Shown here piece after piece: positions 1-18,254 of a DNA stretch of 18,254 nucleotides; within the stretch, counting starts at the first letter, position 1; the number at the start of each line of letters is the position of its first letter. The translations under genes and the position numbers were made by a program. The notes beneath the pieces are model-generated. The model saw only the letters and a list, made by a program, of their open reading frames with translations. It had not been told where the DNA came from and did no database searches. The stretch spans positions 1 through 18,254 of the forward strand of contig JBEKXL010000033.1 in assembly GCA_049512075.1 (NCBI GenBank). Reading direction: 5' to 3'. The stretch is from Candidatus Bathyarchaeia archaeon (GTDB lineage: Archaea > Thermoproteota > Bathyarchaeia > Bathyarchaeales > Bathycorpusculaceae).

Positions 1-212
1 GACATTCCCACGGAGGCCAGTTTGTGATACCCAAGCTCGGAACTCCTTTCCGCGGTGACGGTTTCAGGAAGTATCCCCTCGGAAAGTATCAGGTGGGGGA
101 AATGGTCCAGTACACCAACCGAGGCTTGGGCACAAACGCATTCTGGATACGCATCAACTGCGCGCCTGAGATTACGGTCATTGATCTGCAACCTGGAGAG
201 AAGAGAGCATGA
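1..212 (+). CDS. Metallophosphoesterase (YkuE/calcineurin-like), 3' part only; cut by window edge
   Basis: The frame from position 3 reads HSHGGQF (GH[ST]HGGQ motif), then YTNRGLGT...RINCAPEITVIDL, the typical C-terminus of this family. The stop overlaps the next ATG (ATGA). Confidence 0.85.
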   Translation, partial: HSHGGQFVIPKLGTPFRGDGFRKYPLGKYQVGEMVQYTNRGLGTNAFWIRINCAPEITVIDLQPGEKRA

Positions 213-2227
213 CAAAAGATAATTTCACACGTGCACTAGTTGTATGGTTTTTAACCTCATTAGGTATTTTCTTTACGGGCGTTCTGACTGGATTTTATGC
301 CCGCAATCTTGTCGTCGCGCTGATCGCGACCGCTGGGCTTGGGTTAATTAATGCACTGCTTTGGCCCCTATTATCGAGGTTAGCGGGCGCGCGCTCTGTG
401 ATAACGTTCGGCTTGATTGCGCTGCTATTGAACGGCATAATAATCTGGTTGCTGGCTTTCTTCACTTCGGAAATTGAGGCCTCTGGGTGGGGGTTACTTT
501 TCCTCCCCTTGAACATAGCGTTGATCAATACTGTGGTCTCGGGAATACTCGCCATCGACGATGACGCATCATTCTACCGTGCGGTTTTCAAGAAGATGAA
601 GGGGCGCGCAGAGAAGGCAGCGGAGAACAAGGACAAGCCAGGCTTCATCTTTCTGGAGATCGACGGGTTGGCTGAGACTATTCTCCGCAAAGCGATAGAG
701 AACGGGACGATGCCAACTCTGGCAGGGTGGGTCAGCAGTGGGACGCATAAGACAAGGGGATGGGAAACGGACTTTTCTTCCCAGACGGGCGCAAGCCAGG
801 CGGGCATATTGCACGGGAACAACAAAGACATCCCTGCCTTCCGATGGGTGGAAAAAGCGAAAGGCAACAAAGTCATATCGACCGTCGGCATGGGCGATGC
901 CCAGGCGATCGAGGCACGCATCTCGGATGGGAACGGTTTGCTTGCAACCAGTGGACGTGCTATAGCCAATCTCTATTCTGGTGACGCCAAAGACAACATC
1001 TTCGTCTTCAGCAAGCTCAGCAAGATAAGGCAGTTGTACAGTGAGTCGTGGAACACTTTTTACGCGGTCTCCTTCAATCTTGTCCACACGATCGCGTACA
1101 CTCTCTGGGAGATAGTGCTGGAGGCCCGGTCCAGATACAGGCAGTGGCGAAGGAATACCCTACCCAGACTGCGCCACCGCGGACTCGCATACTACTTCAC
1201 AAGGGTGGTGGCGGATGTCTTCCTGCGCGAGTTGAGCACTTACACGGTCATAGGCGACATTATCGCGGGTGACAAGGATGTCGTATATACTACGTTCATG
1301 GGGTACGATGAGGTGGCGCATCACTGCGGCATTTCGGATGATGAGGCTTTCTACGTTTTAAGAAAACTGGACAGGTGTATAAAGAGGATAGAGGCGGCAA
1401 AGGCATACGCCCAACGCCCGTACTACCTCTGCGTCCTTTCAGACCACGGTCAGACCAACGGCGCCACGTTCAAGCAACGTTATGGTCACACGCTTGCAGA
1501 TCTTGTACAGAAGCTTCTGCCTGAGGGACATAGGACGTACTTCGAGCTTGACTCCAACCAGGACCACTTCGGACAGATGGTGACGGTGCCTTTGCGGAAC
1601 GTAAGAAATAGAGTGACTCGAAAGTCGAAGAAAAAGGAGGACAAAAAGATTGATGCAATCGTGCTGGCTTCGGGAAACGTGGGTCTGATATACTTCACAC
1701 AATGGGCGGATCGGATAAGTTTGGAGGATATCAATAAGACCTATCCAGAGATGGTGAAGGGTTTGTCGCAGCATGAGGGCGTGAGTTTTGCCATGATCCG
1801 CTCGAAAGAGCGGGGGCCGGTCGTCATAGGGGCGAAGGGCAAATATTACCTCGCGGACGATAAGGTCGAGGGTGAGAACCCGCTGGCCAAATTCGGGAAG
1901 CGGGCTGCTGCGCACCTGCGCAGGTTGGACAGCTTCAACTGTGTCCCTGATATCCTTCTCGTAAGCATGTACGACACGGAGAAAGATGAGGTGGCAGCAT
2001 TTGAGGAGCTCATTGGTAGCCACGGTGGCTTGGGTGGCACCCAGTCGAAGCCCTTCATATTGCATCCTTCTGAATGGGACCTTGGGAAGGAGGAGATCGT
2101 CGGCGCCGAGAACGTTTGTCGGCTATTTAAGAGGGAGATGGCGAATGTTTCGACGAAGTCGGGCGGAACCAAACGGAATGATAACAATGGAACAGTGCAC
2201 GTGGATAAGAAGACGCACGCGATTTGA
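209..2227 (+). CDS. Phage-holin-family (4-TM) domain fused to an alkaline phosphatase/type I phosphodiesterase-superfamily domain
   Basis: 672 aa. About 4 N-terminal hydrophobic helices (GLINALLWP, TFGL..LLLNG), then alkaline phosphatase superfamily motifs LEIDGL, SQTGASQ, YDEVAHH, LSDHGQ, GSHGGLGG. Confidence 0.85.
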   Translation: MTKDNFTRALVVWFLTSLGIFFTGVLTGFYARNLVVALIATAGLGLINALLWPLLSRLAGARSVITFGLIALLLNGIIIWLLAFFTSEIEASGWGLLFLPLNIALINTVVSGILAIDDDASFYRAVFKKMKGRAEKAAENKDKPGFIFLEIDGLAETILRKAIENGTMPTLAGWVSSGTHKTRGWETDFSSQTGASQAGILHGNNKDIPAFRWVEKAKGNKVISTVGMGDAQAIEARISDGNGLLATSGRAIANLYSGDAKDNIFVFSKLSKIRQLYSESWNTFYAVSFNLVHTIAYTLWEIVLEARSRYRQWRRNTLPRLRHRGLAYYFTRVVADVFLRELSTYTVIGDIIAGDKDVVYTTFMGYDEVAHHCGISDDEAFYVLRKLDRCIKRIEAAKAYAQRPYYLCVLSDHGQTNGATFKQRYGHTLADLVQKLLPEGHRTYFELDSNQDHFGQMVTVPLRNVRNRVTRKSKKKEDKKIDAIVLASGNVGLIYFTQWADRISLEDINKTYPEMVKGLSQHEGVSFAMIRSKERGPVVIGAKGKYYLADDKVEGENPLAKFGKRAAAHLRRLDSFNCVPDILLVSMYDTEKDEVAAFEELIGSHGGLGGTQSKPFILHPSEWDLGKEEIVGAENVCRLFKREMANVSTKSGGTKRNDNNGTVHVDKKTHAI

Positions 2228-2359
2228 CAAAATCGACATCCCTCATATTTATGACTTCGTAGGACCAAATTTGGCTCGCGTTAAAACGAATAAGGCCGAT
2301 GTTAAGTCAGCGCGAAAGCTTTTTTAAGCAAAACCAACCACCCTTCCAATGGTATATAC

Positions 2360-2518
2360 ATGTCAACTTTTGATAAAGCCAAGAAAAAAGTTAAGGAAGC
2401 AGCTGAAAAGACAGAGGAAGAAGCCAAGGAAGCTGGAGGAAAAATAAAAAGGGCCGGCAAGAAAGGCGTTGAAAAAACCAGAAAAGTTGGCCATGAAACG
2501 AAAGAAAAACTGAAATGA
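2360..2518 (+). CDS. Small Lys/Glu-rich hydrophilic protein (LEA/CsbD/YtxH-like), 52 aa, not in ORF track
   Basis: ATG at 2360 to TGA at 2518 encodes MSTFDKAKKKVKEAAEKTEEEAKEAGGKIKRAGKKGVEKTRKVGHETKEKLK. TATA-like TTTTAA near 2323; T-run directly after the stop. Confidence 0.75.
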   Translation: MSTFDKAKKKVKEAAEKTEEEAKEAGGKIKRAGKKGVEKTRKVGHETKEKLK

Positions 2519-2646
2519 CTTTTCGCCTATTCTGCCCATCTCATCGCGTGTTTATCTTGCCATAGATTAATTGATCTCTGCTTTGCATGTCCCGCGCGCG
2601 CTGAGTGCAGAGCTGTATGTAATGAAATAGCCAATGGTGAAAAATT

Positions 2647-2997
2647 ATGACAAAAATAACTTTTATTGGAGCTGTTAGTGACCAAGAGAAGGCAGGTGGA
2701 GTTGTTACTATAACAGTGACTCTTCCTAGTGGAGATACAATGCATGTTGCAGCTGCAACTTTAGAAGACAAGACCTATTCTGTTGTTCAAGAATTCATTG
2801 CTGAAGGAGATTACAGTGCAGTTGCAAATGTCGAAGCTGATCTTACCGGGAGTGATGTGGTTTACTTCACAGTGACAAAGGCACTGACAGAAAGGACAGT
2901 GACTCTAAATGTACGAAGGACAGTAAGAAACAGGAAGGGAAGGCGAAAAACAGAAAGAAGGACAAGAAAGCCATTAGCGCGAGCCAAGAGAGTGTAG
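2647..2997 (+). CDS. Hypothetical protein, beta-rich (Ig-like?) domain with Arg/Lys-rich tail
   Basis: 116-aa ORF preceded by a GGTGA RBS (2636-2640); alternating T/V beta-strand pattern. Confidence 0.6.
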   Translation: MTKITFIGAVSDQEKAGGVVTITVTLPSGDTMHVAAATLEDKTYSVVQEFIAEGDYSAVANVEADLTGSDVVYFTVTKALTERTVTLNVRRTVRNRKGRRKTERRTRKPLARAKRV

Positions 2998-3405
2998 GGT
3001 AGGAGTATTGGGGTTTAGGTTAGTGTTTAGCGTGCGCTAACGAGGAAAAGACGTTAAGCAACATTGTTTTGTAACAATTTCGCGCGCGCAGATGCTTTAA
3101 GCTTTTTTGTTTTAGGTGCTAAGCGCATGCGAGCTTTGGCAAAAGAAGATTGTGAAACTAGAGTAAATTAGACTGAAGATTTAGTTTAGCGCGAGCGCCA
3201 TGGGCAAGATAAGTTTACAGTATTCTATCCGTCAGTGTTTAAGCAATCTACTTGGTCGCAGATTGGAGAATAGCAGAGTTTAAAATTAGCATGTTAAACG
3301 CGCTGCCAAGTATGATAATAGTTGGAACCAAGATGTCGACGAACCAATCCGGTGGTCCCATCTGCCCCACAACCCCGAATAAGCCATGAAACTTAGTGCG
3401 CGGGC
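2974..3405. repeat. Cluster of TTAGCGCGCGC-type motifs
   Basis: TTAGCGCGAGC 2974, TTAGCGTGCGCTAA 3027, CGCGCGCGC 3081, GCGCATGCG 3123, TTAGCGCGAGCGC 3186, ACGCGCT 3298, TTAGTGCGCG 3393. Confidence 0.75.
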
Positions 3406-3485
3406 GGCAGATTCTTTCTTTTGAAACTGATTTCAGATAAATCTTTTATATTGGTTACATTCATCTGAAGGGGCAAGGTGAAAAC

Positions 3486-3851
3486 ATGGGAAGTTTATGG
3501 CTGGGAGCTTTCGTTGGTTTTCTCATAACACTGGTTCTTGGCTGGCTGTTTCCAGGAGTTGGACACCTGATAGGCGGGTTCATTGGTGGGTTAGTGGCAG
3601 GGCTCATAGCTCGAGGGATAGGAAAAGGAGCGTTAGCCGGTTTCCTCGCGGGAATATTCGGCGGGATCATCATCGCAGTACTAGTAGCAGTAGGTTTTAC
3701 GGTGGCAGGTGGAGTATCGGGCGGGGTGCAAGGCGGAGTTTTTGGGTTCCTGTCAGGACTAGCCCTTGGAATCGCAGTGATTATCGTGGCTGCCTTCGGC
3801 GCAATCGCCTCAACGATAGGCGGACTCATAGGCGGACTGCTAGCAAGATAG
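3486..3851 (+). CDS. Gly-rich membrane protein (DUF5518-like)
   Basis: 121 aa with GxxxG-rich hydrophobic helices; AGGTGA RBS; TTTTATA box near 3445. Confidence 0.8.
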   Translation: MGSLWLGAFVGFLITLVLGWLFPGVGHLIGGFIGGLVAGLIARGIGKGALAGFLAGIFGGIIIAVLVAVGFTVAGGVSGGVQGGVFGFLSGLALGIAVIIVAAFGAIASTIGGLIGGLLAR

Positions 3852-4003
3852 AAAACCCCTGTTTTGTCTGCTCGGAAGAGCAGCTCACGGCGAAGATAGA
3901 AAGCGCGCGCCAACCTTGTCTATAGGTATATTTTTCGCGCCTACGGAATGGACAACAAAAAAGGGCAAAGAGAAAACCAGCATTAAGAATGAAGACTGAA
4001 AGT

Positions 4004-4426
4004 ATGAAAAATGAAGACTGCAAATTCAAAGTATTGTTTGTATGTACTGGTAATGCATATCGTAGTCCAATATGTGAAGCACTTCTCAAAAAGCTTAGAC
4101 CAGATTTGGAAGTTGATTCTGCAGGGACGAAAATTGCACGTAAAATCACAAGAGAAGCAAGAGAATACTTGATGTCAGAAGATGCTATACAGTATCTTAA
4201 GCAGACACCTGAAAGCATTGACCGCAAACAATTGGAGCAGTATGATATTATTATTGCTATGGAACAGAGACACAGCGACTCAGTCTTAAAGAAATGTCCT
4301 GAATGCAAAAATAAAGTAGTTGTTTGGAATGTTCGGGATAAGATTCCCTTTTTGCATAGACGGACCGAGAAGATTAACAATCAGATGAAAAAGAATGTCA
4401 CCGAATATGCAGGGTCATTAGCATAA
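4004..4426 (+). CDS. Low-molecular-weight protein-tyrosine phosphatase / arsenate reductase family protein
   Basis: P-loop KVLFVCTGNAYRSP (CX5R), VDSAGT, YDIIIAME. In-frame ATGs at 3989 and 4004; 4004 preferred. Confidence 0.85.
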   Translation: MKNEDCKFKVLFVCTGNAYRSPICEALLKKLRPDLEVDSAGTKIARKITREAREYLMSEDAIQYLKQTPESIDRKQLEQYDIIIAMEQRHSDSVLKKCPECKNKVVVWNVRDKIPFLHRRTEKINNQMKKNVTEYAGSLA

Positions 4427-4431
4427 GACTT

Positions 4432-4504
4432 GCGCGCGCTAAGCGGTATCCATTGCAGGGCGCGTTGAGGTTAGAGTCAAGGTGCGCTTGCTATCTTTAG
4501 CGCG
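4432..4504. repeat. Cluster of GCGCGC motifs
   Basis: GCGCGCGCTAA 4432, GGCGCGTTGA 4459, GTGCGCT 4482, TTAGCGCG 4497. Confidence 0.7.
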
Positions 4505-4891
4505 TCACGTTCTTTCCCCATCGGGCTTGCATCTTCGGGCCATAAATCTTCGCAGGAACAGGTGTATGCTTCAATTGCTCCAGACGTGCCGTAACAATCG
4601 AGTGAAGTCGATTGCGAAGATCTTCGCCTCTCAAATTGGTTGCTCGTAACTCATCCCTGACTTGTTTTGCCCACTCTTCATCTTTCAGGACTTCGGTTAT
4701 CCAGTTTCAAAGTCCCCTCGCCGAAGGTGAAACGCCAAGGATTTTACATCTACAGCCTCGACATTCTCGGCAAACTCTTTCAGCGAAGCAGCACTCTTAC
4801 CAGTGTAGTTTCCAATGTCGTTGTAGAAATAGAACGCCTTCTCTCTTTGAACCGGTTTAAGGACTACCTCATTCTCCGGCATAACTTTCAC
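4497..4891 (-). pseudogene. DUF5752-like protein, frameshifted
   Basis: AFYFY...A.SLKEF...VDVKSLAFHLRRGDFE stops at 4697. Restoring one base at the T-run 4705-4707 continues the frame as NWITEVLKDEEWAKQV...LRNRLHSIV...TR* to a stop at 4497-4499. Confidence 0.7.
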
Positions 4892-5144
4892 TTCGAAATA
4901 ACCATAGCGCGCGCTCTAATAAAAACTTGTCACTGTACCACGACAGCGTCTTGCCGTAGGGTTGTCGCGCGCGCGAGATGTCAAGAAGACTTCTCCACAT
5001 TACTCTGTCAATAGAACACTACTAGACAATGTGTTCTTATTGCTTGTGGAATAGCACCTGATTCAACCGTGCGCGCTTAAACACTGACGGATAGAAATCC
5101 ATAAATACAAGTTTTCACAAACCGAAATTAAGAATGAAAGAGGT

Positions 5145-5336
5145 ATGAAATTGGCAGGAGAACGTTTTGAAATATTCAATGATGCGGCAGGAAAATTCAG
5201 GTTCAGACTTAGAGCTCAAAATGGTGAAATCATAGCGGAAAGTGGAGCTTACGGATCAAAAGAGAGTTGTCAAAAAGGGATAGCATCAGTCAAGGAAAAT
5301 GCATCCAAAGCAGAAATAAAAGACTATACAACCTAG
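5145..5336 (+). CDS. YegP/DUF1508 family protein
   Basis: FEIFNDAAGKFRFRLRAQNGEIIAESGAYGSKESCQKGIASVK signature; TATA-like ATAAATA at 5101; the start may be TTG at 5151. Confidence 0.9.
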   Translation: MKLAGERFEIFNDAAGKFRFRLRAQNGEIIAESGAYGSKESCQKGIASVKENASKAEIKDYTT

Positions 5337-5381
5337 AAACCCACACTTTCTCTTTTTTCGAACTTCTGCATCTACATGAGC

Positions 5382-5570
5382 TAGCGCGCATGCTTGTTCC
5401 GAAATTGGCCTAAAATGGTTTTTATTCGTCCTTCATGATCTAGGGACGGCTTTGGGCTGCGTGTCTGTTCTTGATTTCTTTGGGGATTTTGTCTTCCTCG
5501 AACACAGGAGAAACGGGCAAACCGGAATTAAAACCATTTTTAACCATTTTAGGAACACGCATGCGCGCTA
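5382..5570. mobile_element. MITE-like non-autonomous element, 189 bp, 46-bp imperfect terminal inverted repeats starting TAGCGCGCATGC
   Basis: 5382-5427 and the reverse complement of 5525-5570 match at 39/46, with the first 12 nt identical. Repeated AAAATGGTT subterminal motifs; the outermost TA on each side may be a target duplication. Confidence 0.7.
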
Positions 5571-5672
5571 AAGCGGTTTATAAGGCAGTGATTAAAGAAG
5601 AACGAAGATGTGGAGAAACTTTGTGTCATGTTTATTCTACCTATTTAGCAGAAAAGTGGCAGATGAGAGATT

Positions 5673-5870
5673 ATGAAGAAGAGTAAGAAATTGCATATTG
5701 TTTCTGGTTTAGTCATTTTGATTGGTATTTTGGTTATTGTAGATGGTATAGGAAGTATTTTGTTACCTGGAAATAACCATGACTTTATTTATGATTTTGA
5801 ACGTATAATTAGGGTTGTAGCAGGATTCTTGATTGTTATACTAGGTATTTATCTTGAAGTTAAAGAGTGA
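5673..5870 (+). CDS. Small 2-TM membrane protein, AT-rich
   Basis: 65 aa; basic N-terminus and two hydrophobic stretches. Confidence 0.7.
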   Translation: MKKSKKLHIVSGLVILIGILVIVDGIGSILLPGNNHDFIYDFERIIRVVAGFLIVILGIYLEVKE

Positions 5871-6090
5871 TTCAAAGTATATTTTGGGTGAAGAAGTGAA
5901 TAAAATAAAGAATAGTACGCGCTATTTCATAGAAATGTTCTAGCCCAGAACCTTCAAGTCTGCCTTGTCATAGATCCGAGCAAAGCCGCTTGAAAAAATC
6001 GATCGATTAGCAGAAAGAGCTCCCGTCCTTATCCGAGATTTACAACATTTTTACATCATCTTCTCTAGTTATCTAGTAGGGAATTTGAAG

Positions 6091-6140
6091 ATGGTCAATT
6101 GTCCAGAATGTGGGAAACCATTGAAAAAAACCGCGCGCGC
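6091..6140 (+). pseudogene. 5' fragment of a small zinc-ribbon protein gene
   Basis: ATG at 6091 gives MVNCPECGKPLKK (CPxCG), then runs into GCGCGCGC at 6133-6140; no second CxxC before the stop at 6186. Confidence 0.5.
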
Positions 6141-6311
6141 TATTTGCACAGGGAAAGAGCTTTCTCCACATTCCGCAGACGCATAGGATTCGGAGAAAGA
6201 ATAGACACAGAAAAAGCATCAGCAAACATGGCAGAAGGCATCCTTGAAATAAAACTTCCCAAGCTCGAGCCCAAGCCTGAAAAGAAAACCAAAAAGCTAA
6301 CACCTCAATAA
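6141..6311 (+). pseudogene. 3' fragment of Hsp20/alpha-crystallin small heat-shock protein
   Basis: YLHRERAFSTFRRRI...IDTEKASANMAEGILEIKLPK is the C-terminal half of the alpha-crystallin domain. The N-terminal half is absent, and the resemblance starts right after GCGCGCGC. Confidence 0.8.
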
Positions 6312-6492
6312 ACCCCTTTTTTCCCATCTAGCCAGTTAACTGGACCGTTCAAATAAGCACACTTACCTTCTACATTATGACCCAGTGCGCGTCATTTCGT
6401 GCGCTCAAAAGACCGCTAGGACACGGAAGAATTAGCTATAAATAACCCTTTGTCGTTGTATGTAGAAAGCATATCAGAGGGATTCGACTGAA

Positions 6493-6690
6493 ATGAGCGA
6501 AGAAAGCGGTTTCGGACTGAATTTGGCTGAAAAGTTCTTCGGCCTTATCATTCTCCTGACGGGCATCCTTGCCCTTTATTACACCGTGTCGAGTTCTCAA
6601 GTCCTTCTGGCGTACACGGGGCTTTTCAGTTTTCTGAGCATCATCCTGATAGTTCTAGGTCTCGTTTTGCTGATTGTTAAGGTAGAATAG
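6493..6690 (+). CDS. Small 2-TM membrane protein
   Basis: 65 aa with two hydrophobic helices; TATAAATA box near 6437; GAGG RBS. Confidence 0.75.
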   Translation: MSEESGFGLNLAEKFFGLIILLTGILALYYTVSSSQVLLAYTGLFSFLSIILIVLGLVLLIVKVE

Positions 6691-6691
6691 G

Positions 6692-7009
6692 TTATTCTCT
6701 TCTTTCAACGACTATCCTACATTTTGCGGCTAGAGTAGCTATCGCGCCCAATGCGGCAAGCCAGGGAACAAGGAGCACTCCAATGACTCCTACAGTGGCA
6801 GGGATCTCAAGCATGACTTTCCCTTTTTCATCCTTGACGATAATTCTTGTCACGTTGCCTTCATGAAGCAGCTGCTTAACCTTCTCGATAAGGCCATCAG
6901 AGGAAACTGTGAATTCCTCTCTCGTGACCTTGGCACTTGTTGCACCGCAAACAGAGCAGAATCTGTCTTCGTCGTTCAGTTTTGCTCCGCATTTCCAACA
7001 ATAGGGCAA
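6692..7009 (-). CDS. Zinc-ribbon + DUF4342 domain protein
   Basis: CWKCG...FCSVCG, then EEFTV...LIEKVKQLLHEGNVTRIIVK...LEIPATVG. Confidence 0.85.
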   Translation of the reverse strand: MPYCWKCGAKLNDEDRFCSVCGATSAKVTREEFTVSSDGLIEKVKQLLHEGNVTRIIVKDEKGKVMLEIPATVGVIGVLLVPWLAALGAIATLAAKCRIVVERRE

Positions 7010-7119
7010 ACCGACTCATCTTCTGAATAAGTGTTTATTAGGGCAATTGCTTATTAGTTTTCAAACGTTTCAGTGAATTAGCAACTTGTCTGATGCCTAG
7101 CGACTGAGGGAAAAATTGG

Positions 7120-8898
7120 ATGCCGACCCGTCAACCAATCGTGTGCGTTCTTGGCCATGTTGATAGCGGCAAGACTTCTCTCTTGGACAGAATCCGTAAG
7201 ACCAGCGTCCAGGCGAGGGAGGTTGGAGGTATCACTCAGCACATAGGTGCAAGCTTTTTTCCGGTTGAGACGCTCAGTCAACTGGTCGGCTCCACGCTTT
7301 CGAGAGTTAAGGGTGAAATAGAGATTCCGGGTTTACTCATCATTGATACGCCGGGGCATGAGGCCTTCGCTAACCTTCGCAAAAGAGGTGGCAGCGTCGC
7401 GGACATCGCCATTCTTGTGATTAATGTTCTGCGAGGTTTTGAGGCTCAGACATATGAGTGTGTAGAGATTCTGAAGGCTCGGAAAACTCCCTTCTTGGTC
7501 GCTGCGAACATGATAGACCGCGTACCTGGCTGGAATTCCTACACTGATGCACCGTTTTCGAAGACGTATCCACAGCAAGATCCTTACGTTCGAGAGGATT
7601 TGGACAACAAGATATACGACGTTATCGGTGTTTTCTCTCGTTTGAGTTTCAAAACGGATCGTTTCGACAGGATAAAAGACTTCACGTCAACCGTGGCCAT
7701 CGTGCCCACAAGCGCAAAGACGGGTGAAGGCATATCCGAACTCATAACGGTTCTCATAGGGTTAGCGCAGCAGTATCTGAAGAAGCGTTTGCAGACAACG
7801 GAAGGGCCCGCTAAGGGCACGGTTCTGGAGGTTAAAGAGGAACCCGGACTCGGCTTGACAATCAACACTATAATATATGATGGGGTACTGCAGAAAGATG
7901 ACTTGATAGTTGTCGGCGGCAAGGAGAAACCGATTGTAACGCGTATACGGGCGATTCTGGTTCCCAAACCGCTGGATGAAATAAGAGATCCTAGAGAAAA
8001 GTTCTCCTCCGTCAATTCCGCGTCCGCCGCTGCAGGCATCAAAATCGTTGCGCCCGACATAGAAGGAGTCTTGGCAGGGGCTACTTTGTACGCTGTGCCG
8101 CAGGGCGAAAAACCCGAAAGGTACGCGAGGCTCATCGCCGAGGAAATCGAGAAAATAAGAATAGCGACTGACATTGACGGCATCGTCTTGAAGGCCGACA
8201 CACTGGGTTCGCTTGAAGCCATCGCGGACATTTTGAAACAAAACAACATCCCCATCAGACTAGCCGACGTGGGAGACATTTCAAAACGAGACATCATAGA
8301 AGCCTCCGTCGTGAAGGAGCATGAACCCCTGTACGGGGCAGTGCTGGCTTTCAACGTCAGAATCCTGCCAGACGCTGAAGAAGAGGCTGGAAGTAGAAGC
8401 GTTCAGGTTTTCCGTGAAAAGATAATCTATCACGTTATTGAAAACTATCTGGCGTGGTTCAAAGGAAAACGAGACGCCGGACTTGAACAGGACTTTGAGA
8501 CTCTCGTCAAACCTGCCAAACTCCAGGTGATGGACGGCTACGTTTTCCGAAGGGCGAAACCAGCGATTTTCGGCGTTGAAATCTTATCTGGGAGCATCAA
8601 ACCCAAGATTGCCCTTGTCAGGCAAAACGGTGAAGAAGTAGGCGAAATTCAGCAGATTCAGGACAAGGGGGAGGCATTGCCAAACGCTGAACAGGGAATG
8701 CAGGTCGCGATTTCCATGGATAAGCCGGTGTTTGGAAGACACATATTTGAAAAAGACGTGTTGTACGTGAAAGTGCCTGAACAACAGGTGAAGGTTCTCA
8801 TGACAACGTTCGCTGAAAGATTGACAGAGGGAGAACAAAAAGCATTGGACGAGTACGTCGGTGTCATGAGAAAGAAGGTGCCGTTCTGGGGAGCATAA
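7120..8898 (+). CDS. infB: Archaeal translation initiation factor aIF5B (IF-2)
   Basis: 592 aa; RQPIVCVLGHVDSGKTSLLD, GGITQHIGA, IDTPGHEAF, KADTLGSLEA. Confidence 0.97.
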   Translation: MPTRQPIVCVLGHVDSGKTSLLDRIRKTSVQAREVGGITQHIGASFFPVETLSQLVGSTLSRVKGEIEIPGLLIIDTPGHEAFANLRKRGGSVADIAILVINVLRGFEAQTYECVEILKARKTPFLVAANMIDRVPGWNSYTDAPFSKTYPQQDPYVREDLDNKIYDVIGVFSRLSFKTDRFDRIKDFTSTVAIVPTSAKTGEGISELITVLIGLAQQYLKKRLQTTEGPAKGTVLEVKEEPGLGLTINTIIYDGVLQKDDLIVVGGKEKPIVTRIRAILVPKPLDEIRDPREKFSSVNSASAAAGIKIVAPDIEGVLAGATLYAVPQGEKPERYARLIAEEIEKIRIATDIDGIVLKADTLGSLEAIADILKQNNIPIRLADVGDISKRDIIEASVVKEHEPLYGAVLAFNVRILPDAEEEAGSRSVQVFREKIIYHVIENYLAWFKGKRDAGLEQDFETLVKPAKLQVMDGYVFRRAKPAIFGVEILSGSIKPKIALVRQNGEEVGEIQQIQDKGEALPNAEQGMQVAISMDKPVFGRHIFEKDVLYVKVPEQQVKVLMTTFAERLTEGEQKALDEYVGVMRKKVPFWGA

Positions 8899-8910
8899 AG
8901 GCCTCGCAGG

Positions 8911-9900
8911 TCACAGCGGCAGCATTTTTCCAACTTTTGCTTTCTTCGCTTTCTTAAAGACGTAAGTAGCCGTTGCCACGTCTTCTATGGCTAAGCCAAG
9001 GTTCATTGCCATGATTCGTTCTTTCGCGTTTTCTCGACCTGGTTTGACGTATGCTACGATTTCGCTCAATTCTGCGTACACCTCTGGCAGGTCGGCGAAG
9101 TAGCCTTGAGCTTTGTAGTAGGCCAGTTGGTCTCGGTCATCAGTGCAGAACTTGTGCATAGAATGCATTGTTTCTGGTTTCCAGTAGGAATCAAAATCCA
9201 AAGGACACGCCAGACCGCCGTCTCTGAACCACGACTTTTCGATGACGGGTTGCGGTTTTTTCAGAATTGGGCCGGCAGTGACTACTATGTCACAACCTTC
9301 AACAGCTTTCTTGGGCGATTCGACAGGAGCGATGCTGATTCTATTCAGCGCAGTCATTTCTTTCACGTATTCTTGCAGATTCCTTTGACTAATGTCATAG
9401 GCTTTAACCTGTTCCAGATTCTTGCACACCACCATCAAGGCTTCAAGATTGCTTCTACCCTGAGCACCACAGCCGAGAACACCTAAGACTCTGGAGTCCT
9501 CTCTTGCCAGATGTTCAGCTGCAACTGCAGTCGCCGCACCTGTGCGTTTAGCCGTGATCCACGTGCAGTCCATGACACAGATTGGACATCCAGTGTCAGT
9601 ATCATTCAAGACGAGTAGGCCGGAAATGTATGGCAAGCCTCTTTTCGGGTTTTCTGGAAAACCGGCTACCCATTTTACGCCTGCTGTATTCATTTTTTGC
9701 AGGTATGCTGGCATAGCATGGATGAAAGCGTCTTTTTTGGGATGTACTCCTGGCTTTGGAGGAACTTCAGTTCTTCCAGCGGCTTTTTCACGAAAGGCCT
9801 CTTCTACGATTCCGACTATTTCCTTCATTGGAATGTTCAGTCTCTCCACGTCGGATCGAGAAAGGTACAGGAACTCACCCAATGGATCCATAGTTAACAC
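8911..9900 (-). CDS. Ornithine cyclodeaminase/mu-crystallin family protein (archaeal alanine dehydrogenase-like)
   Basis: HAMPAY, GVKWV..FPENP, ITAKRTGAATA, GCGAQG, GLAIEDVA. Confidence 0.92.
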   Translation of the reverse strand: MLTMDPLGEFLYLSRSDVERLNIPMKEIVGIVEEAFREKAAGRTEVPPKPGVHPKKDAFIHAMPAYLQKMNTAGVKWVAGFPENPKRGLPYISGLLVLNDTDTGCPICVMDCTWITAKRTGAATAVAAEHLAREDSRVLGVLGCGAQGRSNLEALMVVCKNLEQVKAYDISQRNLQEYVKEMTALNRISIAPVESPKKAVEGCDIVVTAGPILKKPQPVIEKSWFRDGGLACPLDFDSYWKPETMHSMHKFCTDDRDQLAYYKAQGYFADLPEVYAELSEIVAYVKPGRENAKERIMAMNLGLAIEDVATATYVFKKAKKAKVGKMLPL

Positions 9901-9951
9901 TCAACCAAAGTTACAGCTTGAACAGGAGAACTTGTCGAAAAGTCAACTTGG

Positions 9952-10245
9952 TCAGCCGCCGCCGACAGGTGGTATTATGGCCAGAACATCGCCATCTGAA
10001 AGTTTCGTTTTCAATCCTTCAAACGATGATATGCTTCTGCCATTAACCAGAAACTGCAGGAAGCCTCGAACCTCGCCGGTTTTGGGGTCGTAAATATATT
10101 CAGTCAAGCTCTTTCCGTGTAGCTCGATCAAGCGCTCAAGTACACTCTCAACTGTGACAGCTTCTCCTCTCGAAAATTCCAGAATCTCCTCCTTTTTGCC
10201 GGTTACCTCTCTCAGAGTTGTGAAGAACCGAACCGAAACATGCAC
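9952..10245 (-). CDS. MoaD/ThiS-family ubiquitin-like protein (SAMP-type)
   Basis: VRFFTTLRE..., LVNG, L.DGDVLAIIPPVGGG with C-terminal Gly-Gly. Confidence 0.92.
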   Translation of the reverse strand: MHVSVRFFTTLREVTGKKEEILEFSRGEAVTVESVLERLIELHGKSLTEYIYDPKTGEVRGFLQFLVNGRSISSFEGLKTKLSDGDVLAIIPPVGGG

Positions 10246-10325
10246 GTGCGGTCCACCGACATTGAAGGGCGCAACCTAAAATTTAAACTGTCTCACTGAG
10301 AAAGCGATTTTTCTGATCAGATTAT

Positions 10326-10348
10326 GTACAATGGTTTAGCGCGCGCGC
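10326..10348 (+). repeat. GTACAAYGGYTTAGCGCGCGC direct repeat, copy 1
   Basis: 19/21 identical to 12270-12290. Confidence 0.75.
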
Positions 10349-10434
10349 AACAGCTAAGGTGGGCGAGACAATGGTTCGACGGAGCGAATGCTCTGGCAGA
10401 ACTAGGGAAATACATGGGGCAAAGGGTGGACTGA

Positions 10435-10450
10435 GGTAAAGATTTATATT
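10435..10450 (+). promoter_or_regulatory. Putative BRE/TATA box of thermosome gene
   Basis: Purine-rich GGTAAAGA followed by TTTATAT about 60 nt upstream of the ATG; GGAGG RBS at 10498-10502. Confidence 0.45.
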
Positions 10451-10508
10451 TGTGGGCATTTTTTCTTGTTCCGATTAACAAGATTTTAAGTTTGAATGGA
10501 GGATTTGT

Positions 10509-12158
10509 ATGGCTTACTTGACGACGACAGCGTCGGGACAACCAGTACTGGTTCTAAAAGAAGGTACGACACGAAACAGAGGAAGAGAAGCTCAGAGAAA
10601 TAACATAATGGCAGCACGCGTCATCGGTGAAGTGCTGAGAACGACTTTGGGACCTCGCGGCATGGACAAGATGCTCATCGACAGTCTCGGGGACATAACG
10701 ATAACGAACGATGGAGCAGCTATACTGAACGAGATAGAAGTTGAACATCCAGCGGCAAAGATGATGGTGGAAATCGCGAAGACGCAGGATGACATGGTGG
10801 GCGATGGAACAACCACTGCCGTAGTGTTGGCAGGCGAACTTTTGAAAAGAGCTGAGGAGCTTTTGGATCAGAACATTCATCCGACCATAATTGTGAGCGG
10901 CTACCGCAAGGCGGCACAGAAAGCAATGGAAACTATAAACAAAATTGCAATAGAGGTGGACATCGACGACAGGGCAACACTGAAGAAGGTCGCAGTGACG
11001 TCCATGGCAAGCAAAGCCGTCGGTCCAGCAAAGGAACACTTCGCAGATATAGCCATTGACGCCGTGAGAAAAGTGGCTGAAAAACGCGGAGACAAATGGG
11101 TCGCCGACATAGACAACATCCAAGTGATTAAGAAAACCGGAAAAAGCCTCTTCGAATCGCAATTAGTCCAAGGTCTAGTTATAGACAAAGAAGTCGTCCA
11201 CACGGGAATGCCAAAGAACGTCGAAAGAGCGAAAATAGCCCTGCTTGACAGCGCTTTGGAAATCGAAAAGACCGAGATCAGCGCAGAGATAAGAATACGC
11301 GATCCAAACCAGATGAAAGCCTTCCTAGACCAAGAGAACAAGATGCTGCAAGAAATGGTTGAAAAAATCAAGGCTTCAGGCGCCAACGTCGTTTTCTGCC
11401 AGAAAGGCATCGACGACATGGCCCAACACTTCTTAGCGAAAGAAGGAATACTCGCAGCCAGAAGAGTGAAACAGTCAGACATGGAGAAGCTGGCAAGAGC
11501 AACAGGCGGAAGAATAGTCTCAAACCTAACCGATCTAAGAACACAAGACCTAGGCATAGCAGGCCTCGTTGAGGAACGCAAGCTCGGCGAGGACAAGATG
11601 ATATTCGTCGAAAAATGCAAAGACCCCCGCTCAGTAGCAATCATTATACGAGCTGGCCTCGAAAGAATGGTTGACGAAGCCGAAAGAGCAATGACAGATG
11701 CCTTGTCAGTGGTCTCAGACGTCATAGAAAACAGCAAGATAGTCGCGGGAGGCGGAGCAGTAGAAGTCGAAGTGGCCAAAGAGCTGCGAAACTACGCTAC
11801 CGACATCGGCGGAAGAGAACAACTTGCTATAGAAACCTTCGCGGACGCCATCGAGGTAATACCGAAAACCTTGGCGGAAAACGCAGGATTGGAACCCATA
11901 GACATACTCGTAGAACTGAGAGCTGCCCACGGAAAGCCGGACGGACAAAACAAAGGAGTAAACCTCTTCACCGGAAAAGTCGAGAACATGCGCGACAAAG
12001 GCGTAGTCGAGCCCGTGATTGTAAAAGAGCAAGCGATAAAATCCGCGACAGAATCCGCAACCATGATAATACGCATCGACGACGTGATAGCATCCACAAA
12101 ACCGAAAGAGGGACCCGGAGGGAAACCGCCAGGCGGAATGCCTGAAGGCGAAGACTAA
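10509..12158 (+). CDS. ths: Thermosome subunit (group II chaperonin; alpha/beta not resolved)
   Basis: 549 aa; [36 protein letters not shown]. Confidence 0.97.
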
Positions 12159-12170
12159 ACAACATCCCCA

Positions 12171-12180
12171 GTTTTTTTAT
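12171..12180 (+). terminator. Putative archaeal oligo-T terminator of thermosome gene
   Basis: T7 run 13 nt after the stop codon. Confidence 0.45.
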
Positions 12181-12269
12181 ATTCAAACCTGTTTTCACGC
12201 GTTAGGAAAACAAAGCACCTCCATTGTCGTGCACTCTTCTGACGGAGTAACTATGTTATTATCCGCTTC

Positions 12270-12340
12270 GTACAACGGCTTAGCGCGCGCTGGTAGCCGT
12301 ACGCGCTAGGTCCAGGCCCTTTCTAATCAGAGCGCGCGCG
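12270..12340 (+). repeat. GTACAAYGGYTTAGCGCGCGC direct repeat, copy 2, plus two further motif copies
   Basis: 12270-12290; TACGCGCTAG at 12300; AGCGCGCGCG at 12331. Confidence 0.75.
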
Positions 12341-12693
12341 ATATTTGTTCTAATCCTCTCAAGAATCCCCGCAGCGGTAGTACTCTACCTCATCTGAAGA
12401 GTCCTCTCCAGCCAGTTTGAAAACTGCGAAGAAGGTGAATTAGGTATCCTTCTCATAAGTGGCCGGCAATCGTATTCGTCGTCTTAGCCCTAAGAGTGTG
12501 AAAGTCGCGGAGGGCTTTGAATATGCCTGAGCTGAACCGAATCTTCTTGGAACATTTTTTCGTGAATATTCATAGATTGCTTGGTGAGTTGGAAACTCAA
12601 ATATTATCGTTGAAGTTAATGGCTCTTTTGTCTTTTGAGCAAAATTGTCCAGCATCGTGCAGCAGATGTACACCAAAGCGGTCTTTTGATTTT

Positions 12694-13176
12694 TCACATG
12701 TTTGTGGAGCTGCTTTGCTCATTGTCGATTTCTTTGAGAGTCTTTATTGCTTCTTCAACGTGGAGTTCAGGATGAGACTGGGACGAGAATATGTGCCTAA
12801 CGATGCCTTTTTTGTCGATTATGTACGTCACTCTTCCTTCTATTATGCCTAGGGTTGAGGGAACGCCGTATAGCTGTCTCACTTTGTGGTCCACATCGCT
12901 CAATAGGATAAATGGCAATCCATAGTGATTGGCAAAAGACTTATGGGATTCCATGCTTTGCGAGCTTACGCCAAGCACTTCTGCGCCTAGACTCGTTAAG
13001 ACATCATAGCTGTCCCTGAAGCTGCAGGCCTCCTTCGTGCAGCCTCGCGACTCGTCCTTGGGATAGAAGTACAAAACTATGTTCTTCTTGCCGAAGAATT
13101 CAGAAAGTGTCACGTTATCGCCCATCTGGGACGGAAGCGTGAAATCCGGCGCTTTATCTCCAACTCTAACTTCCAT
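12694..13176 (-). CDS. bcp: Peroxiredoxin, BCP/PrxQ subfamily
   Basis: GDKAPDFTL, LYFYPKDESRGCTKEACSFRD (CxxxxC), RVTYIIDKKG. Confidence 0.93.
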   Translation of the reverse strand: MEVRVGDKAPDFTLPSQMGDNVTLSEFFGKKNIVLYFYPKDESRGCTKEACSFRDSYDVLTSLGAEVLGVSSQSMESHKSFANHYGLPFILLSDVDHKVRQLYGVPSTLGIIEGRVTYIIDKKGIVRHIFSSQSHPELHVEEAIKTLKEIDNEQSSSTNM

Positions 13177-13228
13177 ATCAACACCACACAGCCCACGCGG
13201 TGAGTTTTACATTTTCAGGCGATAGACT

Positions 13229-13378
13229 GCGCGCGCGAGTAGTTGTTTTTCCTGCACCGTTCAGGCCCAAGAATCCAACAAACTTGGACCCTTCAATTCT
13301 CAAATTCAGTCTCGACACCGCAACAAACGAGCCGTAGTGCTCAGAAAGATTCACAGCTTCTACAGACGAGTTTGTCAA
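13229..13378 (-). pseudogene. 5' fragment of ABC transporter ATP-binding protein
   Basis: RBS plus TTG start, VEAVNLSEHYGSFVAVSRLNL...GFLGLNGAGKTTT (Walker A). The resemblance ends at the (GC)n tract 13229-13237. Confidence 0.8.
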
Positions 13379-13399
13379 GTAATCAGCTCCTCTTTTTTC

Positions 13400-14599
13400 C
13401 TATCTTGTCATCATTCTTCTAAATAATGGAACAGCAATTGCAATCATGACTGCACCGAACGCTATCATGATTATCAGGTCCGTAGAGATGTCGGATACTC
13501 CTGCACCTAGCACCATGACTTTTCGCATCGCATCCGAAGCATACGTCAACGGAAGGAATTTGCTTATGTCTTGCATGTACCAGGGCATCGACTGTATCGG
13601 GAACATCACACCGCTGAGGAACATCATTGGAAACATCAACGTCATCATCATCATCTGCGCCGTCTCCTGATCCTTAGCGACAGACGTCAAAACGATGCCT
13701 AAGCCGACGAATGAGAATACACCTAGCAAGAGCAAACCGACCACGAGCAGAATGCTTCCGTGGATTGCGACGCCGAATAGCCCTATAGCCAATGCCATTA
13801 TTATGAAGCCTTGGAGTAAGCCACGAGTGGTCTGACCCAAAGCTTTTCCCAGGATGATGGATAGCCTATTGATTGGCGCAACCATCATGCCGTCCATAGT
13901 GCCAACTTCCTTCTCCTGAGATATCGCCACAGGCAACCCGGTCATGACACTCATCATAACCGTCATCATCATTATTCCAGGTGCAATGAAGTTAAAGTAA
14001 CTCGGGTTTCCAGAAACAACGCCTTCCGTCTGAACATAATAAGGTTTAACGATGGCAAGAGAGTCATTCGCAGTTACTGTTGAAGATAGATTTTGAACTT
14101 TCTCCTGTGCGAGCAGCGTGCCCATCTGGTCAAATGTCGCGGACAAAACTGCCTGCAATTCTGCGGATATTGTTGGGTTAGACTGGTCAGTTATGATAAT
14201 CAGCGTTCCCTGTTCTCCATTCATGATGCTGGCGGAGAAATTGCTAGGTATGGCTATGCCGCCGTCTATGTCGCCCTTTAGAACCTTGTCCTTGATGTCA
14301 GCCACGCTTGAAGCGTTGGAAAGCTTCAGCATATGTGTCTGAGTGTTGATCTGCTGTAAGCCCATGATGAAGGCTTGGCTTGGAATCGTGATATTGTTAA
14401 AGCCTGAATCTTCATTCACCAAGCCCACAGGCATATTGCTTATCGTAGTGTTGCCGGATGGATAGATAAAGCCAATCATAGCCATCATGAACAACGGCAT
14501 CACGATAAGAAGGACCAGCCCCAAACGGTTCCTAAACAACTCTGTTAGATCTTTCCAAGCGATCCGCATAGAATGCGAAATCAAGGCTTTTGCGCCCAT
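13400..14599 (-). CDS. ABC-2 type exporter permease
   Basis: 399 aa; N-terminal TM, extracellular loop, EKEVGT, FLSGVMFPI..MPW, PLTYA. Confidence 0.93.
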   Translation of the reverse strand: MGAKALISHSMRIAWKDLTELFRNRLGLVLLIVMPLFMMAMIGFIYPSGNTTISNMPVGLVNEDSGFNNITIPSQAFIMGLQQINTQTHMLKLSNASSVADIKDKVLKGDIDGGIAIPSNFSASIMNGEQGTLIIITDQSNPTISAELQAVLSATFDQMGTLLAQEKVQNLSSTVTANDSLAIVKPYYVQTEGVVSGNPSYFNFIAPGIMMMTVMMSVMTGLPVAISQEKEVGTMDGMMVAPINRLSIILGKALGQTTRGLLQGFIIMALAIGLFGVAIHGSILLVVGLLLLGVFSFVGLGIVLTSVAKDQETAQMMMMTLMFPMMFLSGVMFPIQSMPWYMQDISKFLPLTYASDAMRKVMVLGAGVSDISTDLIIMIAFGAVMIAIAVPLFRRMMTR

Positions 14600-14605
14600 A
14601 TTATC

Positions 14606-15628
14606 TCACCTTATCCTCCCTTGCGCCGGCGCCCCAAAGCGTCGATGCCTAGCCATCGGTATCTTTTGGTCTGCGCTATCTCTTACCTCGTGACCAGTTA
14701 TGTGCAAGAACACGTCCTCAAGTGTGGGCTGAAGATTCTCCATAGAGTTTATCTTTCCATCCTTCGCTCTGACGGCGTCGATCACTGAGTCGAAAGCTTC
14801 ATTGCCGTGGACAATGATTCTTATATGAGTGGAGTTTTCCTGAGTAACAGCATCCGTGCATTTGCACGCCTGGATTGCCTCAATGATATCGGGTGACAAA
14901 TTTCCTATCTCCAGTTTCAGTATTGTTGTATCCGCTCCTGAAATTGTTTTTTTCAAGTTCGTCGAAGTGTTCAGCGCCACTATCTTGGCGTGATCCATTA
15001 TGCCGATTCGATCGCATAGCAGATCTGCATCCACCATCATATGGGTCGTTACGATTATGGTGGTGCCGTTTTCCCTGTTGAGCTTTTTGATGAATTCGCG
15101 AATCTCAACGGAAGACTGAGGGTCCAAACCCAGAGTCGGCTCATCGAGAAAGAGCACCTGTGGCATGTTCAGCAGCGCCCGTATCACGTTCATCCTCTGC
15201 CTCATGCCCGTCGAAAACGTGCCCACTTGAGCGTTCTTCCACTGTGTAAGTTGAACCAGCTCAAGCAACTCGTCTATTCTTCTGTTTAAGATGTCTTTGG
15301 GAAGGTTGAAGAGACTTCCGAAAAATATCAGGTTTTCCCTAGCCGTCAAACGGTTGTACATTATCATTTTTTCGGAAACGATGCCTATAAGTTTCCTGAC
15401 TTCTGTATCATCTTTCATTATGTCGTAACCGCCAATCGTGGCCGTTCCCTTAGTCGGCCGCGCTAACGTGGAGAGCACGCGCAAGGTTGTACTCTTACCC
15501 GCTCCGTTAGGACCCAGCAGACCAAATATCTCGCCTTTTTTCACATCGAACGAGATGCTGTCAACCGCCACGAAATCGCCGAAGGACTTCGTCAAATTCT
15601 TGACATCGATTATTGGATCATTTTCCAA
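14606..15628 (-). CDS. ABC exporter ATP-binding protein (DrrA-like)
   Basis: GPNGAGKST, FSTGMRQR, LFLDEPT, C-terminal PTLEDVFL. The TTG at 15628 follows a GGTGA RBS; the ORF track starts at 15646. Confidence 0.95.
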   Translation of the reverse strand: MENDPIIDVKNLTKSFGDFVAVDSISFDVKKGEIFGLLGPNGAGKSTTLRVLSTLARPTKGTATIGGYDIMKDDTEVRKLIGIVSEKMIMYNRLTARENLIFFGSLFNLPKDILNRRIDELLELVQLTQWKNAQVGTFSTGMRQRMNVIRALLNMPQVLFLDEPTLGLDPQSSVEIREFIKKLNRENGTTIIVTTHMMVDADLLCDRIGIMDHAKIVALNTSTNLKKTISGADTTILKLEIGNLSPDIIEAIQACKCTDAVTQENSTHIRIIVHGNEAFDSVIDAVRAKDGKINSMENLQPTLEDVFLHITGHEVRDSADQKIPMARHRRFGAPAQGRIR

Positions 15629-15656
15629 GAGACCATCACCGCGCAATATTGTTCAG

Positions 15657-15670
15657 TGCAATATATCGCA
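15657..15670. promoter_or_regulatory. Candidate PadR operator (imperfect palindrome TGCAATATATCGCA)
   Basis: 12/14 self-complementary; lies in the divergent gap between the ABC operon and padR. Confidence 0.4.
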
Positions 15671-15720
15671 GTAAAATATAAATATTCCGATGATATTCAC
15701 ATGAGAAAGATGAATTCAAC

Positions 15721-16308
15721 ATGCAGTCACACGATGAAGTAACGGCTGGACACTGGCTTAAAGAAACGCGGAAGGGCTACATACGTATTGCGGTTCTGAT
15801 TCTTCTCAGCAAAAAGCCGCATCATGGCTATGCAATAATGAGAGAGATCAAAGAAAGAACCGGTGGTTTCTGGAAACCGACTGCCGGCGGTATCTATCCC
15901 ATTCTTCAGAAACTGGAAAAGTCAGAATATATTGAGGGCAAATGGGACTCACGCCAAAAGAGAAAACGAAAGACTTACCGAATTACTGAGACGGGGAGAC
16001 CCGTGCTTCAGCAGGCTCTTGCCAGACAGAACCAGATCGCTGACGGCATGAGCAACTTGTTCAGTGAATTCATGAAGGATGTTCTGGACGTGAAGTCCTC
16101 TCCAAGGCGGCCTATGCCTAACCTTTTCTCGGTTTTTCTTGAAGAAAGGAAGCAGAGACCTGAGGACACTAACAGCGTGTTGAAGCTCAAGCGAGGCCAA
16201 ATCGGAGATGCAATTGAGGCCTTGCAGAAGGAGCTGGATGATATTAACAAGCGGTTGGCTAAGATGGAACCGCAGAAGAAGAGGACTTCGCGTAGGAGGT
16301 TGAATTGA
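15721..16308 (+). CDS. PadR-family transcriptional regulator
   Basis: LILLSKKPHHGYAIM, PTAGGIYPILQKLE, RKTYRITETG; C-terminal coiled coil. Confidence 0.92.
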   Translation: MQSHDEVTAGHWLKETRKGYIRIAVLILLSKKPHHGYAIMREIKERTGGFWKPTAGGIYPILQKLEKSEYIEGKWDSRQKRKRKTYRITETGRPVLQQALARQNQIADGMSNLFSEFMKDVLDVKSSPRRPMPNLFSVFLEERKQRPEDTNSVLKLKRGQIGDAIEALQKELDDINKRLAKMEPQKKRTSRRRLN

Positions 16309-17409: not shown

Positions 17410-17418
17410 CAGAGTGAA

Positions 17419-17469
17419 GCGCGCGCTAATGTTCAGATGGGACAGATGGACTGGACATGCGCGCGCTGA
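17419..17469. repeat. Two GCGCGCGCT(A/G)AT copies 40 bp apart
   Basis: GCGCGCGC at 17419-17426 and 17459-17466. Confidence 0.75.
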
Positions 17470-17537
17470 TCATCACATACATGGTGAGAGTAGAGGGCAA
17501 CTATGTCTTGGCAAAAACTTAACGTTTGGGTGATAAC

Positions 17538-18170: not shown

Positions 18171-18219
18171 TGGCGATTGAAAATTGGAGAGAAAAATATG
18201 AAGAACGGACGTGGGAAAA

Positions 18220-18254
18220 TTGACTCTTGTGAAAGTTGCTGAAACGTCAGAGAT
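18220..18254 (+). CDS. Start of a CDS, possibly a Rieske-type ferredoxin; cut by window edge
   Basis: TTG-ACT-CTT-GTG... gives MTLVKVAETSE, resembling Rieske ferredoxin N-termini. Only 11 codons are visible. Confidence 0.35.
   Translation, partial: MTLVKVAETSE

Follow-up and report, generated by a model that had tools for sequence, protein, structure and literature searches.

Cut-and-paste DNA transposons such as Tc1/mariner, P, hAT and PIF/Harbinger leave a few of their terminal bases at the former site, and their movement can be accompanied by loss of neighbouring DNA. In prokaryotes, insertion sequences (IS) mediate adjacent deletions and, together with MITEs, drive pseudogenisation, in which genes are cut off right where an element ends and gene fragments accumulate as mosaics. 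In cyanobacteria, the palindrome HIP1 (GCGATCGC) is associated with methyltransferases that have it as their recognition site, and its copies can outnumber the genes, according to excerpts of two reports (PMC5861425, PMC4390886).

We analysed an 18,254-bp stretch of DNA (the window), which is the entire contig C33 of a 2.73-Mb genome (G000; 86 contigs, 47.5% G+C). Four genomes of the same genus (G001, G002, G003 and G004) and one of another genus (G029) were compared with it. These six genomes form the motif-rich set, and 35 other relatives form the motif-poor set. The source organism occurs in peat and wetland samples; related loci retrieved with aIF5B came mostly from distant bacteria, the best named archaeal match being a Candidatus Bathyarchaeota MAG at 58% identity, so that its placement is tentative.

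The motif studied here, GCGCGCGC, resembles transposon footprints in its behaviour and HIP1 in its abundance, and differs from both. As in the footprints of Tc1/mariner, P, hAT and PIF/Harbinger, a seam between originally non-adjacent sequences is marked, and the termini of an IS and MITE family, GCGCGC, match the scar. The differences are the archaeal host, the IS5-like (DDE_Tnp_1) element, the fixed palindromic scars that far outnumber the elements, and excision as a proposed step. Unlike the case of IS-mediated adjacent deletions, no element is present at window 6133-6140 and an 8-nt mark is all that stands there. Like HIP1, as portrayed in the excerpts of PMC5861425 and PMC4390886, GCGCGCGC is an octameric palindrome that is restricted to certain lineages and is the most over-represented word of its genome. 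It differs from HIP1 in lying at indel boundaries and in being mostly intergenic: only 14% of the (GC)n runs with n of at least 4 fall in ORFs of at least 120 aa, which make up 77.5% of the genome. The methyltransferase search covered the C5 cytosine family PF00145, which was found in none of the six motif-rich genomes, and this gives no support to a HIP1-like, methylation-driven origin. GCGCGC does not occur in the text of the HIP review PMC4390886, and we found no printed description of the motif in literature searches on GCGCGCGC in archaea or on insertion sequences and MITEs of Bathyarchaeia, where only general MITE papers were retrieved.

The Hsp20 joint and its ancestral locus

The original prediction described window 6091-6311 as the start of a zinc-ribbon gene joined, at the motif, to the second half of an Hsp20 gene, and this reading is borne out: the ATG (6091-6093), the motif and the Hsp20 part are all as described (Table 1). 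The alternating run at the seam, CGCGCGCGC, occupies 6132-6140, and the frame of ORF 6099-6311, followed from 6141, translates as YLHRERAFSTF...GILEIKLPKLEPKPEKKTKKLTPQ (full reading YLHRERAFSTFRRRIGFGERIDTEKASANMAEGILEIKLPKLEPKPEKKTKKLTPQ). This 70-aa ORF matches Pfam HSP20 (PF00011) at profile positions 41-98 of 102 (E 2e-9, 37.9 bits, cut-off 20.8); it is the C-terminal part of the alpha-crystallin domain, with profile positions 1-40 gone. The remnant shares 55 of its 56 residues with G001 and 51 of 56 with G002, and is 84% identical at the nucleotide level to the genome's own paralogue on contig C45. Set against the Hsp20/alpha-crystallin family, it is thus near-identical to the full-length orthologue over residues 118-173, but lacks the full alpha-crystallin domain, the N-terminal region, and a promoter and start codon of its own. 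The two halves meeting at 6133-6140 are in different frames, and the ORF from the ATG ends after 31 aa with one CxxC. Judged from the sequence, the seam is a pseudogene joint and Hsp20 codons 118-173 are a dead stump, not a functional family member.

Table 1. Coordinates of features at and around the joint (window positions).
Feature	Position	Strand	Description
Low-molecular-weight phosphotyrosine phosphatase-like gene	3989..4426	+	Pfam LMWPc, E 5.6e-19; conserved left context of the ancestral Hsp20 locus
Left-edge motif copy	4432..4439		GCGCGCGC
Mosaic block	4440..6132		1,693 nt in place of 425 nt in G001
MITE	5382..5573		~190 nt; ~46-nt terminal inverted repeats beginning GCGCGCATGC; TA on both sides
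Zinc-ribbon gene 5' fragment	5973..6132	+	Upstream region 5973-6090 and first 13 codons from ATG 6091 (MVNCPECGKPLKK)
Motif at seam	6133-6140		GCGCGCGC; missing here in every intact Hsp20 gene compared; G002 synteny starts at 6140
Hsp20 remnant	6141..6311	+	Codons 118-173 of a 173-aa small heat-shock protein, and stop codon
Conserved right context	6312..7119		Hsp20 3' flank and two genes, upstream of aIF5B (7120-8898)
65-aa membrane ORF	6493-6690	+	In right context
Zinc-ribbon/DUF4342 gene	6692-7009	-	In right context; Pfam

To the left of the seam, window 6008-6128 aligns at 92% identity with G000:C39:1855-1977, a copy whose intact ORF of 51 aa has both cysteine knuckles. The family to which both belong (~51 aa, MVNCPECG...YxCENSAC...) has seven other copies, namely the one on C39 and six in G002, G003 and G004, all of which carry the second knuckle; the window ORF has the first, CPEC, only. 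The match to Pfam Zn_ribbon_3 is weak and below the cut-off even for the intact copy (E 0.0067). Between copies, mutual homology begins or ends at GCGCGCGC, at a position that differs from copy to copy.

The claim that two unrelated genes were cut and joined with the motif at the seam agrees with the homology on either side, which stops there: the closest zinc-ribbon paralogues match the window up to 6128, and the Hsp20 orthologues and paralogues match it from 6140 or 6141. The intact homologues in G001, G002, G003 and on C45 read AAAACC|TAT(T/C)TGCAC, with no GCGC and with TA just right of the cut. The NRAR N-terminus of the window ORF was seen in none of the 14 homologue matches, out of 36, that were examined, and the metagenomic protein P0001 ends in the same 56 residues, with normal Hsp20 sequence before them. 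The 7 nt AAAAACC left of the motif (6126-6132) also match intact Hsp20 of G001, G002 and G003, so the exact seam could fall inside the A-run at 6124-6130, and the motif could be an 8-nt extra situated 2 nt right of that run. Since one distant zinc-ribbon copy (G002:C4) has ACGCGC at the seam position, this shared heptamer also means that part of the motif could be microhomology and not derived from an element.

Two other metagenomic Hsp20 relatives, P0003 and P0020, have foreign N-termini with an Ala-Arg pair near the start of the Hsp20 part. As far as protein sequences can tell, such pairs are what GCGCGC at another truncation point would encode.

At the orthologous place, G002 encodes an Hsp20 of the full 173 aa, and this genome is collinear with window 6140-18254 at 88-96% identity; nothing of window 1-6139 was found in G002:C2:60000-77510, and synteny stops exactly at the motif. 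Full-length Hsp20 is also present in G001 and G003, in addition to the paralogue on C45. On the other side, window 3952-4439 is 90% identical to G001 L105:1-487, directly upstream of the full-length Hsp20 there, and at the position of the left-edge motif copy G001 reads GCGTGCGC (one mismatch), followed by the Hsp20 promoter. The 425 nt that follow in G001 comprise this promoter and codons 1-117, in place of which the window has the mosaic block and the second motif copy. The right context is collinear with G003, G004 and G001 from 6410/6440. These alignments show the ancestral order to have been LMWPc phosphatase, Hsp20, small membrane protein and aIF5B, and show the source genome as having lost the Hsp20 promoter and codons 1-117, with a mosaic of unrelated pieces now in their place and GCGCGCGC on both sides. 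The predicted two-gene join stands as a real seam, but instead of a simple fusion it forms the right-hand boundary of a 1.7-kb mosaic between two motif copies (4432-4439 and 6133-6140).

Within the mosaic, segments are separated by (GC)3-5 runs at 4907, 4966, 5071, 5384 and 5563, and the contents are a frameshifted minus-strand small gene, a DUF1508 gene, the MITE, a 65-aa membrane ORF and the zinc-ribbon fragment. Segment 4976-5068 has a longer paralogue at G000:C1:376214-376323, with 87% identity, and in the window a run cuts the segment off at each end. The frameshift-broken small gene (MPENEVVLKPVQREKAFYFYNDIGNY..., 4480-4882) starts 25 nt from the motif at 4907 and has a 70%-identical relative on G000:C8.

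Taken alone, the junction is no more than an ordinary pseudogene. Its interest lies in the scar, which it shares with the rest of the genome.

The motif across genomes and at rearrangement boundaries

No 8-mer is more frequent in the genome than GCGCGCGC, which has 646 copies; there are 451 runs containing (GC)4 and 1,873 matches to GCGCGC. The window holds 15 matches to GCGCGCGC where 0.31 are expected, a number reached in none of 200 shuffles. Copies tend to have the form tA-GCGCGCGC-Ta: position -1 is A in 69% of them, and position +1 is T in 67-68%. Beyond these two letters the flanks are unrelated, and we rejected the possibility that the motif is part of a longer conserved repeat. Runs of (GC)n with n of at least 4 cluster at a spacing of 20-200 nt, and the window has pairs 40-60 nt apart at 4907/4967 and 17419/17459. 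We also considered palindromic joints of terminal inverted repeats, with two hexamers a few nucleotides apart, but dropped this candidate: 12 gaps of 0-20 nt between runs were counted against 10 expected, which is no enrichment. Alternating runs become sharply rarer past 10 nt, with 105 ten-mers, 3 eleven-mers and 2 twelve-mers. Copies of AGCGCGCGCT number 115 in G000, 29 in G001, 87 in G002, 69 in G003, 98 in G004 and 63 in G029, and 11 or fewer in each of the other 35 relatives.

One window copy, at 387-394, lies inside a 672-aa ORF (209-2227) that combines an N-terminal holin-like domain of four transmembrane segments with a type I phosphodiesterase domain.

The motif is strongly associated with the points at which related genomes differ. 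In the comparison of G002:C2 with G000, a (GC)n run with n of at least 3 is found no more than 10 nt from 37 of the 84 internal HSP ends, as against 1.3% of random positions. Across 627 kb of G002 there are 63 collinear events, either indels or replacements, and 34 of them have such a run at a boundary. Where a short allele could be set against a long one, 11 of 30 events show a run at the joint of the short allele, and in 8 of these 11 the long allele is free of runs at both edges. Among 60 small indels inside aligned blocks, 6 are pure (GC)n insertions of 8-14 nt, including the one at window 12332. A gene for an XPD-like helicase (DEAD_2, HBB) provides an example in coding sequence: 776 nt of its DEAD_2 part (G002:C2:54540-55315) are replaced by acCGCGCGCGt at G000:C13:24737-24747, which indicates that the motif can arise at a deletion inside a gene.

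From these comparisons we conclude that the motif is a junction mark across the genus: it is shown to cap truncated copies, to fill deletions, to occur as pure 8-14-nt insertions and to stand at about half of the indel boundaries. Between two sister genomes, roughly one structural difference in two carries this fixed 8-letter palindrome. The suggestion that the motif is a rearrangement scar rather than a regulatory site is accordingly supported genome-wide by its association with indels and alignment ends, although the motif's strong bias towards intergenic sequence, taken alone, would also be compatible with a regulatory role alongside.

Three observations on individual loci accompany these counts. 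Relative to G002, the copy at window 12332-12339 is a clean 12-nt insertion (AGCGCGCGCGAT). The XPD-like helicase gene is split into three ORFs in G002 itself. Window 10339-10348 is a single 10-nt run; its counterpart, G002:C2:81729-82037, is about 300 nt long and consists of four or five short, unrelated pieces with GCGCGC between them.

MITEs, insertion sequences and the proposed origin of the motif

The element at window 5382-5573 has the features of a MITE: it is short, has inverted repeats and many copies (55 matches in G000), and is related to an autonomous IS. Of the ends found in G000, 30 of 46 read TAGCGCGC (TA-GCGCGC-ATGC); the TA at these 30 ends may be a target duplication, or the invariant GCGCGC could itself be the duplicated target. 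The related IS (G000:C32:7469-8577, 1,109 nt) ends in GCGCGC-TGCCTTGTCCC and encodes, between its inverted repeats, a transposase with a DDE_Tnp_1 domain (PF01609, E 5.4e-17) and a weak match to DUF772; we take it to belong to IS5 rather than to a neighbouring family. Five full copies, one each in G000, G001, G003, G004 and G029, have the ends GCGCGC-TGSCTTGTCCC. A search for a high-copy autonomous IS by self-BLAST gave no long repeat family of high identity, and only a search by their ends located the IS copies. The transposase frames of C39 and G001 are open over 333-353 aa. Transposase homologues (E <= 1e-20) are present in all six motif-rich genomes, with at least 71% identity in five and 41-45%, a weak similarity, in G002; two of the 35 other relatives have one, at 36-41% identity.

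We consider it probable, as the best explanation of the locus, that 6091-6311 is a real scar without a functional fusion, marked by a motif from the ends of this IS5-like transposon family. That the segment is a real genomic scar and not a functional gene fusion is the firmer part, read from the frames and homologies described above; the origin of the motif in a transposon family whose ends carry the same letters is probable. In the mechanism that we propose, the family would comprise the 1.1-kb IS with its DDE_Tnp_1 transposase and MITEs of ~165-190 nt, all with GCGCGC termini. An element would insert, and its presence would promote adjacent deletion or exchange with other copies. Later loss of the element body would leave the terminal hexamers to join with an overlap of 2-6 nt, giving (GC)3, (GC)4 or (GC)5. 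At the Hsp20 locus, an element may once have stood at AAAACC|TATTTG inside Hsp20, or beside the zinc-ribbon fragment, with only its ends left at 6133-6140.

The sharp stop in run length at 10 nt fits two hexamers joined with overlap, and the close tracking of the transposase family by the motif-rich state counts for the link to the transposon. At one locus the order of events can be read: a MITE at G000:C12 corresponds in G002 to a remnant, TGGCGCACAGGCGCGC, that keeps 11 nt of the left repeat, which suggests that the element was there first and was lost, leaving a GCGCGC joint. Against this origin, no excision event was observed, and no relative was found to carry an element at AAAACC|TATTTG. 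TA flanks just 24-29% of the solo 8-mers, compared with 30 of 46 MITE ends, so simple TA-duplication footprints do not explain all solos. No consistent target duplication was seen in the full-length IS copies either, and GCGCGC could therefore be a strictly preferred and duplicated target instead of a part of the element. Motif-filled deletions need at least two steps under the model, and the genome association comprises two independent lineages only (genus g1 and G029).

The most serious rival is a break-and-rejoin system independent of the transposon, such as a GCGCGC-specific endonuclease or end-joining with an alternating G/C filler, in which the IS and MITE would merely prefer GCGCGC and duplicate it as their target. 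We regard it as unlikely on balance, yet several observations count in its favour. The long allele is free of the motif at both edges in 8 of the 11 motif-filled short alleles, and the fillers vary in phase and length (cgcgc, GCGCGCG, acCGCGCGCGt and aaCGCGCGCGCGa). The flanks of solo motifs look independent of each other, TA..TA pairs being seen 16 times against ~17 expected; the IS copies lack a clear 2-bp duplication, so that GCGCGC may represent a 6-bp one; and G003 is rich in the motif (69 copies) with no match to the window MITE, which was found in five of the six motif-rich genomes. However, we identified no candidate enzyme, and the lack of PF00145 from all motif-rich genomes argues against a GCGC-type restriction-modification pair of that class. 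The motif-rich state also closely follows the transposase family, and free filler synthesis would not be expected to give the sharp limit at 10 nt.

It is distinctly improbable that GCGCGCGC is a functional element of the host, such as a promoter or terminator site, an uptake signal or a HIP1-like palindrome, at which rearrangements tend to break. The rarity of the runs in long ORFs, the many intergenic copies near promoter-like AT-rich boxes and the 24 of 43 G000 runs inside aligned blocks that are identical in G002 would fit such a role, but the intergenic bias is equally expected from purifying selection against gene-disrupting scars. Moreover, the motif appears de novo within the coding sequences of Hsp20 and the XPD-like helicase, where intact relatives have none, caps paralogous copies at differing positions, and is nearly missing from most genomes of the same family, as a general regulatory signal would not be.

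A chimera of assembly or binning, or a working fusion protein, is highly improbable: the zinc-ribbon fragment is a repeat, and the listed contig pieces of runs X2 and X3 break at 6107/6128 and 6140/6146 with none spanning the joint, but one independent assembly crosses it (X4 record 19, a 5,528-nt public contig from another study that bridges 6099-6700 across the motif with 1 difference), boundaries with the motif are seen again in five genomes that were assembled separately, some of them at orthologous positions, and the different frames, the 31-aa ORF with one CxxC and the lack of HSP20 profile positions 1-40 argue against a working product. The X2 and X3 pieces break because the assembly graph branches at the repeat, and speak neither for nor against the junction.

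If the transposon origin that we favour is true, this archaeon would offer a clear natural example of a genome shaped by transposon scars, and the rearrangement history of uncultured archaea would be readable directly from sequence. It would also carry a warning for annotation, as short ORFs beside GCGCGCGC in motif-rich genomes would often be gene stumps. A broader reading is conceivable, though we hold it only tentatively: the genus, and one other genus with the same transposase, may run an undescribed cut-and-rejoin process that leaves (GC)3-5 at nearly every boundary of an insertion, deletion or gene fragment, so that the record of rearrangement could be read and mark-bounded, gene-sized pieces would be shuffled like cassettes.

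Two further observations concern the MITE. In a contig of run X4, the left flank of the MITE continues straight into 5918, with window 5387-5917 absent (TAGCGCGCTA), which points to a related strain without the MITE and the 65-aa ORF segment and with a single 6-nt run there. MITE copies in G029 (for example C2:208286-208474) are 94% identical to the window copy despite the different genera, and this similarity suggests recent horizontal spread of the element.

Other joints and Hsp20 copies

The small membrane protein gene takes part in other joints. In G001 and G004 (L011, L017) it directly abuts an upstream gene that, from its C-terminal sequence, we take to encode topoisomerase VI subunit A. 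In G002 (C2:77101) an Hsp20 segment, after a motif, lies between the putative topoisomerase VI subunit A gene and the membrane protein gene, and in G000 (C13:63852) the two genes fall on separate contigs. These joints share a repeated promoter-like box, AAATAACCCTTTG.

The Hsp20 paralogue of the source genome (G000:C45:2381-2869, L125) has an in-frame TGA (GFE*PVQYE) at a position where G001, G002 and G003 have TGG (W); it could be a pseudogene, give a shorter product or be read through. Several metagenomic Hsp20 relatives are called as 94-aa proteins starting from VKAEL, as though this upstream stop were widespread.
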